Below are positions 18,838 to 21,764 of a stretch of 64,000 nt of DNA, piece by piece. This DNA comes from Gemmatimonadaceae bacterium (GTDB lineage Bacteria; Gemmatimonadota; Gemmatimonadetes; Gemmatimonadales; Gemmatimonadaceae). The notes beneath the pieces are model-generated. The model ran no database searches. It was not told the origin of the DNA and was given only the letters and a program-made list of their open reading frames with translations. The first letter of the stretch is position 1. Each line of letters starts with the position of its first letter. The DNA lies in NCBI GenBank assembly GCA_036560265.1, contig DATBRO010000268.1, forward strand, positions 8,508-72,507, read 5' to 3'. Both the position numbers and the translations under genes were made by a program.

Positions 18838-19902
18838 CTACTTCACCCTTTCGAGCTTGGGATTCTCGCGCTGCTGACGACCGGCTCGCGCCTGAGGCTT
18901 GCCGTCGACGGCGACGACGTCCGTGGTGAAATCGAAAGTCCCCCTATAGGCCGCCGCTCCGATTCCGTACGCGTCGACCGGAGCCTTCTCGTCCTCGAAC
19001 TCCTGCACTTTCTCGACGTCGAAGCCGCCGGACACCACGATATGCACGTCCCCGAATCCCTCGCTGTCGAGCGCATTTCGCACGTTCCACACGAGTTGCG
19101 GGTTCACCCCCGTCGGCCGGAAATGGCCGAGCTGCGACAGCAGCGAGCGGTCCACCATGTGCTCGGACGTATCGAGCCGGACGCCCCAGAGCCGGTCCCC
19201 GAGAGCGCGAGCGACTTCCACGGACGTGCGCGCGACGTCGTTCTCGTAGTCGACGAGCGCCAGAAGTTGGACGTCCTCGTCGAGCTGTTTTGCGAGCTGC
19301 TTCGTGGCCGCGACGGTATCGCCGCCGAATGCGGCGATGAGCGCGTGCGGAATGGTCCCGGACACTTTGCCACTCCAGAGCGCTCCCTGCGCGGCTGTGG
19401 AGACCTCTTTGGCGCCCGCGATCATAGCCGCGAACCCGTCACCCGGCTGCATGAGAAAGTGTCCGTCCCGCGCTCCGAGGAACAACACCGGCTTTGGGCG
19501 CGCCGTGTCGACGAGCTCGCGGACGTTGGTGCACACACGCGTGCGATGTCCGAGCACGCCGAGGTACAGCGTCTCGAGATGCGCGAACGCGGCGTACTCC
19601 CCTTCGATCGTCATGACGGTGTCCCACGCGTCGACGAGATCGCCTTCGTACAGGGCGTTCACCGTGAGGCTGCTCCAATCTTCGACGCCGCTTTTGAGAA
19701 TCGCGATGGACTCGTCGATCCCCGAGAGCCAGCCGTCCTGCTTCGCGGTGACTTGTAGCAGAACCCGTGGATTCTTCTTCGCGCCCCGCAACACTCGCTG
19801 GACGAGAGCCGCGTAGCGATCGGAGTATTCGCCTGCCCTGATCTGATCCGCGGGAAGCCGGAAGACCGACGGATCCAACCGCTTGCGACGACGCGGGCTC
19901 AT
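18838..19902 (-). CDS. Nicotinate/quinolinate phosphoribosyltransferase-family protein (short NAPRT-like)
   Basis: C-terminal TIM-barrel-like pattern (VRLDTSE...IVVSGGF...DAYGIG). The ATG at 19900-19902 overlaps the aspartase stop (ATGA). The track ORF extension to 20448 is an out-of-frame overlap with the aspartase gene. Confidence 0.65.
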   Translation of the reverse strand: MSPRRRKRLDPSVFRLPADQIRAGEYSDRYAALVQRVLRGAKKNPRVLLQVTAKQDGWLSGIDESIAILKSGVEDWSSLTVNALYEGDLVDAWDTVMTIEGEYAAFAHLETLYLGVLGHRTRVCTNVRELVDTARPKPVLFLGARDGHFLMQPGDGFAAMIAGAKEVSTAAQGALWSGKVSGTIPHALIAAFGGDTVAATKQLAKQLDEDVQLLALVDYENDVARTSVEVARALGDRLWGVRLDTSEHMVDRSLLSQLGHFRPTGVNPQLVWNVRNALDSEGFGDVHIVVSGGFDVEKVQEFEDEKAPVDAYGIGAAAYRGTFDFTTDVVAVDGKPQARAGRQQRENPKLERVK

Positions 19903-21764
19903 TGCCGGTTTTCGCCCGTCATCGCGTCCGGATTGAGCAGGCGGTCGAGCGCCTCGCGCGAGAGAATACCGCGCTCGAGCACGAGCTCGTAGACGCCCCG
20001 GCCGCTCTCCAGCGCCTCCTTCGCGATGACGGTAGCGCTCTCGTATCCGATCGCCGGCACCAGCGCGGTCACGATGCCGATGGACTGTTCGACGAACTGA
20101 CGCATGCGCGCGGGGTTCGGCGTGATCCCTTCGATGCACCGCTGCCGAAGCACGACGCAGCCGCGGCACAGCGTGTCGATGCTTCGCAACAGGCGATACG
20201 CGATGACCGGCTCGAACACGTTGAGCTGGAGCTGACCGGCTTCCGCCGCGAGCGTCACGGTCACATCGCCGCCGATCACGTCGAAGCACACCTGATTCAC
20301 CACTTCGGGGATCACCGGATTTACCTTGCCGGGCATGATCGAGGATCCGGGTTGCATGGGCGGCAGATTGATCTCGCCGAAACCGGCGCGCGGGCCCGAG
20401 CTGAGCAACCGGAGATCGTTGCAGATCTTCGAGAGTTTCACGGCGCACCGTTTCAATACGCCCGACAGCTGCACGAAAGCGCCCGTGTCCGCGGTCGCTT
20501 CTACGAGATCGGGCGCGGTGATCAGCACGAGACCGGTGAGGCGCGACAGATGCGAGCGGACGCGCTCCGCGTAGCCCACGGGAGCATTGATTCCCGTGCC
20601 GATCGCCGTCGCGCCCATGTTGATTTCGCGAATCAACGCCTGTGCTTCGGCGAGACGCTCCACGTCCTCGAGGATCGTGTGTCCGAACGCGGTGAACTCC
20701 TGCCCGAGCGTCATCGGCACGGCGTCCTGCAGCTGCGTGCGCCCCATCTTGATGTGCGGCGCGAATTCCTCGCCCTTGTGCAGGAACGCCGCGGCCAGCG
20801 CCGACATCGCCGTCCGCAACGACTCGATGCTGACGTGCAGCGCGATCTTCACCGCGGTCGGATACACGTCGTTCGTCGACTGACTGAGATTGACGTGGTT
20901 GTTGGGATGCACCGACTGGTACTCGCCGCGCGGACGCCCCATGAGCTCGAGCGCGCGATTCGCGATCACTTCGTTGGCATTCATGTTCGTGGACGTGCCG
21001 GCGCCGCCTTGAAGCGCGTCCACGAGGAAGTGCTCGTGATGCCGTCCCGCGCGGATCTCCTCGCTGGCCCGCACGATCGTGTCGGCGATGGTTCGATCGA
21101 GCAGGCCGAGCTCCGCGTTCGCAAGCGCCGCGGCGGCCTTCACGGCCGCGAGCGCTTCGACCAGCGAAGGAAACTCCCGAATCGCCACGCCGGTAATGGG
21201 GAAGTTCTCGAGCGCGCGCAGCGTCTGTATGCCGTACAGCGCGTCGTCGGGCACGTCACGCTCGCCGAGAAGGTCCTTCTCGCGCCTGGTGCGCGAACCC
21301 GTAAAACCCACGGTGCGGCCGCGTCCGACGAGCGTCGCATCCGTCGCGGCGAGGCGCTGCGAGATCGCGCGAGCAGCGCGTCCGACCAACGCGGCGTACA
21401 GTTGCGGGTGGTCCTTGATCATCCCACCGAGTTGATCGGCCGTGAGCAGAAATGCGTCGGTGCGCTGAAGTGCCCGCGCACTCGTCCCATGCGCCGAATC
21501 GTCGAGGAGCACGCCTTCGCCGACGGCCTCACCGGCGCCGAGTGTCACGAGCCGCACTGGTCGGCTGTTCACGCTCTTTTCGATCGCGACGGCACCCGAC
21601 GTCAGAATGGCCATGAATCGACGCGGCGCGCCCTCTTGAAAGAGGATGTCGTCCGTCTCGAACGTCTTGGCCTGGACGAGCTTCGCCAGTTGATGAAGCA
21701 ACGTCTCCGTCACGCCTTCCAGAAAGTGCGCCTGCCGGAGTTGGTCGCGTATCGTGGCTGACAT
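19899..21764 (-). CDS. aspA: Cyclic-nucleotide-binding-like (CAP effector) domain fused to aspartate ammonia-lyase
   Basis: About 150 N-terminal residues have a CAP_ED pattern ([14 protein letters not shown]...FQEGAP...[10 protein letters not shown]). A class-II lyase follows, with [28 protein letters not shown], which matches AspA rather than FumC by eye. ATG at 21762-21764. Confidence 0.85.
   Translation of the reverse strand: [621 protein letters not shown]

Follow-up and report, generated by a model that had tools for sequence, protein, structure and literature searches.

A CRP-type cyclic-nucleotide-binding-fold domain with a histidine cassette, fused to aspartate ammonia-lyase in Gemmatimonadaceae, is a candidate small-molecule sensor

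Aspartate ammonia-lyase (aspartase, AspA) joins amino-acid nitrogen to the tricarboxylic acid (TCA) cycle and to fumarate respiration, and its control is usually viewed as a matter of transcription, through cyclic AMP (cAMP)-CRP and FNR in E. coli, together with activation by substrate and Mg2+. Can this enzyme also be switched directly, by a sensor domain carried on the same chain? The question is raised by one gene in a 64,000-nucleotide stretch of a Gemmatimonadaceae bacterium genome (GCA_036560265.1, contig DATBRO010000268.1, positions 8,508 to 72,507; hereafter the window), in which a CRP-type domain of the cyclic-nucleotide-binding fold precedes a complete aspartase. Both domains are intact and evolve under equal purifying selection within a single translated chain; we put the probability that the added domain is a working small-molecule sensor gating the lyase at roughly 0.7. 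In the coordinates of the window, the gene is laid out as follows:

19899..21764, minus strand: coding sequence of the sensor–aspartase fusion, 621 aa (start ATG 21764, stop TGA 19899-19901)
21327..21764, minus strand: CRP-type cyclic-nucleotide-binding-fold sensor, residues 1-146 (N-helices, eight-stranded beta-roll, B and C helices); from Pfam, AlphaFold2 (AF2), Foldseek and dN/dS
21621..21623, minus strand: codon of R48, conserved across all fusion clades; CRP has Ala36 there
21471..21521, minus strand: non-canonical phosphate-binding cassette, residues 82-98; from alignment with E. coli CRP and FNR
21489-21491, minus strand: codon CAT of H92, at the cassette position of CRP R82
21327..21407, minus strand: C-helix, residues 120-146, bearing R137, T141 and D142; from the CRP alignment, AF2 models and census
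21294..21326, minus strand: 11-residue linker, residues 147-157; from alignments of relatives
19902..21293, minus strand: complete class II aspartate ammonia-lyase, residues 158-621; from the E. coli AspA alignment, NCBIfam and PDB matches
20316..20348, minus strand: catalytic SS-loop, residues 473-483; from the E. coli AspA alignment

A sequence-only reading of the window had placed a 621-aa protein at 19899-21764, which was borne out, and had offered as an alternative that its start was chosen too far upstream. The stop-to-stop frame does run further, to a GTG at 21896 (665 aa), and the 44 codons that it adds upstream of ATG 21764 are unconserved in relatives and overlap the start of the divergent neighbour. 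The same Met is the start in nearly all of 26 relatives (79-96% identity). Against six related loci, at dS values of about 0.9-1.6, codons 1-157 had a Nei-Gojobori dN/dS of 0.055-0.17 and the enzyme part one of 0.064-0.085; the sensor codons are thus under purifying selection as strong as that on the enzyme codons. Because relatives share the start Met and the sensor codons are under this selection, ATG 21764 is the right start, and the worry about an overextended frame falls away. An annotation artefact, in which translation begins near residue 152-158, yields an ordinary 470-aa aspartase and leaves the upstream frame unmade, could draw on two observations: an in-frame GTG at codon 152 could yield a 470-aa enzyme, and at the Gemmatimonas phototrophica locus (L085, 4328-6229) the older GenBank call AMW06515.1 (488 aa) omitted the sensor domain that RefSeq WP_082821017.1 (634 aa) includes. 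The low dN/dS of codons 1-157 at dS near 1 speaks against it, as does the occurrence of the architecture in more than 1000 proteins. Moreover, residue 152 varies (V, L or I), so codon 152 is not a conserved alternative start, and the one clade truly lacking the sensor has physically deleted it. The internal start is ruled out, and the artefact is essentially excluded.

The enzyme part showed every sign of being a complete aspartase. Pfam placed Lyase_1 (PF00206) at residues 167-498 (E 5e-94) and FumaraseC_C (PF10415) at residues 564-617 (E 3e-21). In NCBIfam, the aspartate ammonia-lyase model NF008909 scored 731.3 bits against a cut-off of 510, the stricter equivalog TIGR00839 reached 679.4 bits, 1.8 short of its cut-off of 681.2, and the fumC model TIGR00979 gave 474.6 bits against 664.75. 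Because NF008909 passes its cut-off and the FumC models lie far below theirs, these scores assign the enzyme to the AspA type and not to FumC, as had been judged by eye in the sequence-only reading. Its best solved relatives are the aspartases 3oce, 6wng, 1j3u and 1jsw (E 1e-152 to 1e-167). Identity to E. coli AspA (from NC_000913.3) was 54% over 455 aa, beginning at E. coli residue 3, and in this alignment the SS-loop (GSSxMPxKxNP), QSTNDxYPT and further substrate-binding motifs were intact. The fusion is accordingly predicted to have aspartate ammonia-lyase activity (Asp <-> fumarate + NH3).

The preceding domain was identified by three methods that agree, a profile search, a structure model and a fold comparison, which confirms the earlier assignment of residues about 1-150 to a CAP/CRP-type effector domain. 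The Pfam model cNMP_binding (PF00027) matched residues 33-118 with 45.7 bits against a gathering score of 27.5 (E 6.5e-12). An AF2 model of residues 1-157, with a predicted local distance difference test (pLDDT) score of 73.7, showed a beta-roll, its strands within residues 31-107, and a long C-helix at 120-140. Its top Foldseek matches in the PDB were GlxR and M. tuberculosis CRP (template-modelling score 0.61-0.66, E about 1e-9, probability 1.00), which are the nearest relatives of the sensor by both sequence and fold. No helix-turn-helix (HTH) family of the CRP/FNR DNA-binding type was matched in Pfam or NCBIfam; the aspartase follows the C-helix instead. The entire enzyme, including its extreme N-terminus, is tethered to the sensor by only the 11-residue linker, which is almost invariant inside the Gemmatimonadota clade and not outside it. 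When stand-alone relatives of the sensor were sought, the only matches were pieces of this fusion, cut short by a contig end or a frameshift.

The binding pocket was then compared with those of known regulators in a MAFFT alignment that set the sensor beside two E. coli K-12 sequences, CRP and FNR, and the other proteins of this fold encoded in the genome. G82-E83 aligned to CRP G71-E72, H92-G93-T94 to CRP R82-S83-A84, and R137, T141 and D142 to CRP R123, T127 and S128; HMMER alignments to GlxR agree in register at the cassette. In CAP structures, the cAMP-contacting residues of CRP are E72, R82, S83, R123, T127 and S128. Of the CRP-type contacts, E83, R137 and T141 are kept, and D142 stands at S128. 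The canonical cassette G-E-x-x-x...R-[ST]-A is not present in full: G82-E83 is there, Arg has become H92 and [ST] has become G93. The suspicion that the phosphate-clamping Arg is replaced was therefore correct, and across 245 full-length fusions in three groups Arg never occurred at position 92, which was His in 241 and Tyr in 4. The census of pocket residues, with groups given as Gemmatimonadota type, Acidobacteriota/Myxococcota type and other 50%-identity clusters, was:

Position 92 His: 119/119; 117/120 (3 Tyr); 5/6 (1 Tyr)
E83: 119/119; 115/120; 4/6
R137: 119/119; 116/120; 5/6
R48 (CRP Ala36): 119/119; 116/120; 3/6

The pocket signature conserved across phyla is G82-E83-G84, H92, T94 and R137, plus R48. 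Because these polar residues persist between the two large clades, whose sensors share only about 40-50% identity overall, the pattern speaks for a working binding site whose chemistry is fixed and non-canonical; R48 may supply the positive charge in place of the missing Arg. Ligation of haem by the cassette His, as in CooA, is unlikely because the polar nucleotide-contact residues are kept.

The architecture is widespread. A search with residues 1-160 alone matched 1174 proteins, and the best 120 all had the three-domain architecture and were all named only "aspartate ammonia-lyase". In one-genome-per-species collections 206 genomes matched, the best 80 being metagenome-assembled genomes (MAGs) labelled Gemmatimonadaceae, Gemmatimonadales, Gemmatimonadota or simply "bacterium". 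An even sample of the phylum contained the fusion in 67 of 401 genomes: 63 of the 93 from Gemmatimonadaceae, the window's own family by record titles, and 3 from two other families of the class, with none among the 166, 70 and 30 genomes of three other families. Three cultured species carry it, as found by exact look-up: Gemmatimonas aurantiaca (WP_083765400.1), G. phototrophica (WP_082821017.1) and Gemmatirosa kalamazoonensis (AHG89952.1, UniProt W0RHP6). Beyond the phylum, MAGs of Acidobacteriota and Myxococcota carry the fusion, and a eukaryote-like protein, P0121, contains two units of it. Exhaustive HMMER searches of 50%-identity representatives yielded the further fused clusters P0122, P0125, P0126, P0128, P0209, P0166, P0155 and P0143; names in the P0122 clade include Holophagales, Acidobacteriia/Terriglobia, Thermoanaerobaculales, Polyangiaceae and "Deltaproteobacteria". 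When 123 AspA domains were placed on a tree, every fused sequence fell in a single 28-row subtree, intermixed with unfused ones; the fusion label took 5 changes, compared with 11.6 in shuffles, with at least 2 required by the starred branches. This distribution fits an old origin in one fusion event or a small number of them, with later losses. No paper describing a sensor–aspartase fusion turned up in full-text searches.

Several variants were seen. P0121 (1420 aa) has a weak RIIa-like N-terminus followed by two tandem sensor–aspartase units, the second with a degenerate SS-loop (QPQTSLIPGKNDPDIPE) that may mark a pseudo-enzyme. In one genome of the family, a locus at 5723-7472 (L097, G088:C17) has a sensor only 38% identical to the window's and an enzyme on a long branch; the sensor match (5723-5983) overlaps the start of the enzyme frame (5924) and may lie in another frame; either decay of the sensor or a frameshift in the assembly could explain this. 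Public data also hold other AspA fusions, namely Peptidase_S51-AspA, malic-enzyme-AspA, PNPOx-AspA, methyltransferase-AspA and AspA-CoaE (among P0131, P0137, P0139, P0213, P0247 and P0229), and N-terminal extensions of 100-220 aa without a Pfam match (P0132, P0134, P0195 and P0210).

We then asked whether the phylogenetic profile points to a ligand. Cyclic-nucleotide signalling exists in this genome, because it encodes two class III cyclase domains and two proteins with canonical R-[ST] cassettes, one a CRP-like regulator (GELALIDEQPRSAHV), the other a stand-alone protein of 163 aa (GEMSVFDRSDRSTHA). A class III cyclase domain was found in 61 of 66 fusion-bearing genomes, and in 61 of 63 within Gemmatimonadaceae. 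Among 20 Gemmatimonadaceae genomes without the fusion, 7, from three genera, carry an unfused AspA (720-743 bits) that is 75-79% identical to the window's enzyme part and occupies the same LeuRS-(asparaginase)-AspA-COX2 position. No class III cyclase was found in any of these 7 genomes or in any of the 10 sampled genomes of the three genera. In a tree rooted with fused sequences from other families, the six of these seven orthologues that were included form one clade (Shimodaira-Hasegawa approximate likelihood ratio 95) nested among fused sequences, which indicates a single loss of the sensor; in one unfused member, RLEAADAPRVDLKGPTRREHDLLG still precedes the enzyme as a leftover from the end of the C-helix. 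Within Gemmatimonadaceae the sensor and class III cyclases thus vanish together, as a cyclic nucleotide ligand predicts. The co-loss pulls the reading a little back towards a cyclic nucleotide and is only suggestive, because it is one event with exceptions in the other direction.

On the reading we favour, a small nucleotide-like ligand would bind in the beta-roll pocket and reposition the C-helix; the short linker would pass this shift on to the extreme N-terminus of the lyase and so alter the activity or tetramer state of the enzyme. The wider proposal of the sequence-only reading, allosteric gating with a ligand not necessarily cAMP or cGMP, would fit all of the evidence and is supported as far as sequence analysis reaches. 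Among possible ligands a cyclic nucleotide leads, above all cAMP, which would be held by His92, with R48 and/or R137, in place of the usual Arg; this identification is tentative, and we would set its chance somewhat below even. In E. coli, aspA transcription is under cAMP-CRP control, and a cAMP-gated aspartase would be its post-translational counterpart. The points that weigh against this reading are several. Two phosphate-contacting residues are changed invariably in this clade (R82 to H92, S83 to G93), and E. coli FNR, which does not bind cyclic nucleotides, also has a His in the R82 column (GHHPSFAQA, compared with SAHGTSARA in the sensor). The full-length AF2 model has a mean pLDDT of 64, falling below 50 over residues 138-197, so that the inter-domain geometry is unreadable. 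Five fusion-bearing genomes have neither a class III nor a class I cyclase: G016 (99% complete), G350 (94%), and G027, G106 and G266 (98-99%). They include all three sampled fusion genomes from outside the window's family, and only G027 has a CYTH match, a weak one. Finally, the co-loss of sensor and cyclases is one evolutionary event, and the cyclase-less clade retains CRP-like regulators (82-89 bits) and CYTH proteins.

On a rival reading the sensor would still gate the lyase, in answer to a ligand from outside the cyclic nucleotides: perhaps a nucleoside or a non-cyclic nucleotide, like those of the trypanosomatid protein kinase A (PKA), or a carboxylate reporting carbon/nitrogen status, such as the 2-oxoglutarate sensed by NtcA; His92 and R48 would recognise it. 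We regard this as a possible but rather unlikely account. It gains from a replacement of Arg by His that never reverts in 245 sequences and, with an Arg48 equivalent, recurs in both units of the eukaryote-like protein; from the loss of the ribose-binding Glu in a few fusions (for example GVG in P0122); and from near-complete fusion genomes without a recognisable cyclase, in one of which, G350, the fusion is the only PF00027 match. A precedent is published, since replacement of the cassette Arg by polar residues in trypanosomatid PKA switches the fold from cAMP to purine nucleosides; that switch, however, depends in addition on a Glu at PKA position A202 that clashes with the phosphate (PMC10959531), and the alignment has Val85 there. 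The retention of the other CRP-type nucleotide contacts and the joint loss of sensor and class III cyclases in one clade also count against a non-cyclic ligand. A role with no small-molecule ligand at all, in which the domain serves C-helix dimerisation or scaffolding, or mediates protein interaction or redox sensing in the manner of FNR- and FixK-type beta-rolls, which bind no ligand, is doubtful in our judgement. The cassette-column His is common to FNR, weak NCBIfam matches link the fusion to FtrB, an FNR-type activator, many CRP/FNR members have no effector, and the genomic context is unconserved across phyla. Distant clades nevertheless conserve the polar pocket (E83, H92, T94, R137 and R48) and not the hydrophobic core alone, and FNR-like Fe-S sensing is ruled out because the sensor domain has no Cys.

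The genes on either side place the fusion in a local context:

18838..19902, minus strand: short nicotinate-phosphoribosyltransferase-like (NAPRT-like) gene, 354 aa, downstream of the aspartase; 339 against an equivalog cut-off of 378
21765..21889, no strand: divergent intergenic region of 125 bp, between the aspartase and the Asparaginase_2 gene
21890..23101, plus strand: Tat-signal Asparaginase_2 gene (Ntn-hydrolase asparaginase or beta-aspartyl peptidase type), divergent from the aspartase

The aspartase and the NAPRT-like gene are probably co-translated, because the ATG of the latter overlaps the aspartase stop (ATGA at 19899-19902). Aspartate is also an NAD precursor, and the pairing may be non-accidental. 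No match to a CRP box or a sigma-70-like promoter was found within the 125-bp intergenic region. Counted across 80 related loci, the neighbours recur as a 138-aa gene (68/80), COX2 (65/80), the Asparaginase_2 and NAPRT-like genes (58/80 each) and LeuRS (46/80). The 138-aa gene (18413-18829, minus strand), between the NAPRT-like gene and the cytochrome oxidase operon, has no family match and a C-terminal HEAKDEKHEAKDENHEAKGEKHEA repeat. A TrkA_N/TrkA_C K+ channel gene (23112-24179, plus strand), between the asparaginase-type gene and a class V aminotransferase, is a local insertion, since it stands at that place in only 1 of the 80 loci. None of the shared neighbours was found in Holophagales, in Acidobacteriia or in one further MAG outside Gemmatimonadaceae; with unrelated neighbours outside the family, a universal asparaginase operon is ruled out and the arrangement is clade-specific synteny. 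Within Gemmatimonadaceae, the adjoining Tat-exported asparaginase-type gene suggests that the fusion serves Asn/Asp catabolism.

The fused copy is not the genome's only aspartase-like gene. A second, unfused AspA-subfamily paralogue (G000:C145:11785-13236, 475 aa) reads GRTHLQDAMP and scores 621.7 bits with NF008909, below both the AspA and the FumC equivalog cut-offs; it could be either a fumarase or an aspartase. A comparable match (585-633 bits) was found in 18 of 20 fusion-less family genomes searched. Because this paralogue exists, the fused copy is a specialised isoenzyme.

If the gating holds, this would be the first case of a CRP-type fold directly controlling a central carbon/nitrogen enzyme. 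A receptor for something other than a cyclic nucleotide would, if true, add a new bacterial ligand class to the cyclic-nucleotide-binding fold, and would amount to a direct metabolite switch on aspartate deamination reaching from Gemmatimonadota to Acidobacteriota, Myxococcota and a eukaryote-like lineage. The invariant change of Arg to His also makes the family a clean system for the determinants of ligand choice in this fold. The fusion is invisible in annotation because databases label all such proteins simply "aspartate ammonia-lyase". Since the fusion is present in three cultured species, and sister genera have an orthologue with a natural deletion of the sensor, the sensor question is directly testable.

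The two halves of the protein each resemble well-known systems. Stand-alone AspA proteins (E. coli, 1JSW; Bacillus YM55-1 AspB, 1J3U; 6WNG; 3OCE) are like residues 158-621 end to end; they have about 470 aa and no regulatory domain, whereas the fusion adds a 157-residue sensor and linker before the enzyme. With E. coli CRP, GlxR (3R6S/4CYD) and M. tuberculosis CRP (3H3U/3MZH), the fusion shares the fold, the Gly-Glu of the cassette and the Arg and Thr of the C-helix. C. glutamicum GlxR and M. tuberculosis CRP are cAMP-binding regulators. The regulators of this family have an HTH output and a cassette Arg-Ser/Thr, whereas in the fusion the C-helix runs into the enzyme and the cassette reads His-Gly. 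Closest in logic are the mycobacterial acetyltransferase Pat (Rv0998/MSMEG_5458) and the Bdellovibrio EAL phosphodiesterase Bd1971, in which an N-terminal sensor gates a catalytic domain; both, with a family 2B encapsulin, were among the query's own matches and are same-fold precedents for enzyme fusion. Their output enzymes are unlike that of the fusion, and their sensors have the canonical Arg and bind cAMP or cGMP. Fused domains of this fold are not known to regulate any central carbon/nitrogen enzyme. In E. coli FNR, a His occupies the same column as H92; O2 is sensed there by an N-terminal Cys-ligated Fe-S cluster, whereas the fused domain is Cys-free. The trypanosomatid PKA regulatory subunit has the same fold and has likewise exchanged the cassette Arg for a polar residue with a change of ligand (PMC10959531), but it combines a Glu at the A202 position, nucleoside ligands and a kinase output where the fusion has Val85 and an aspartase.

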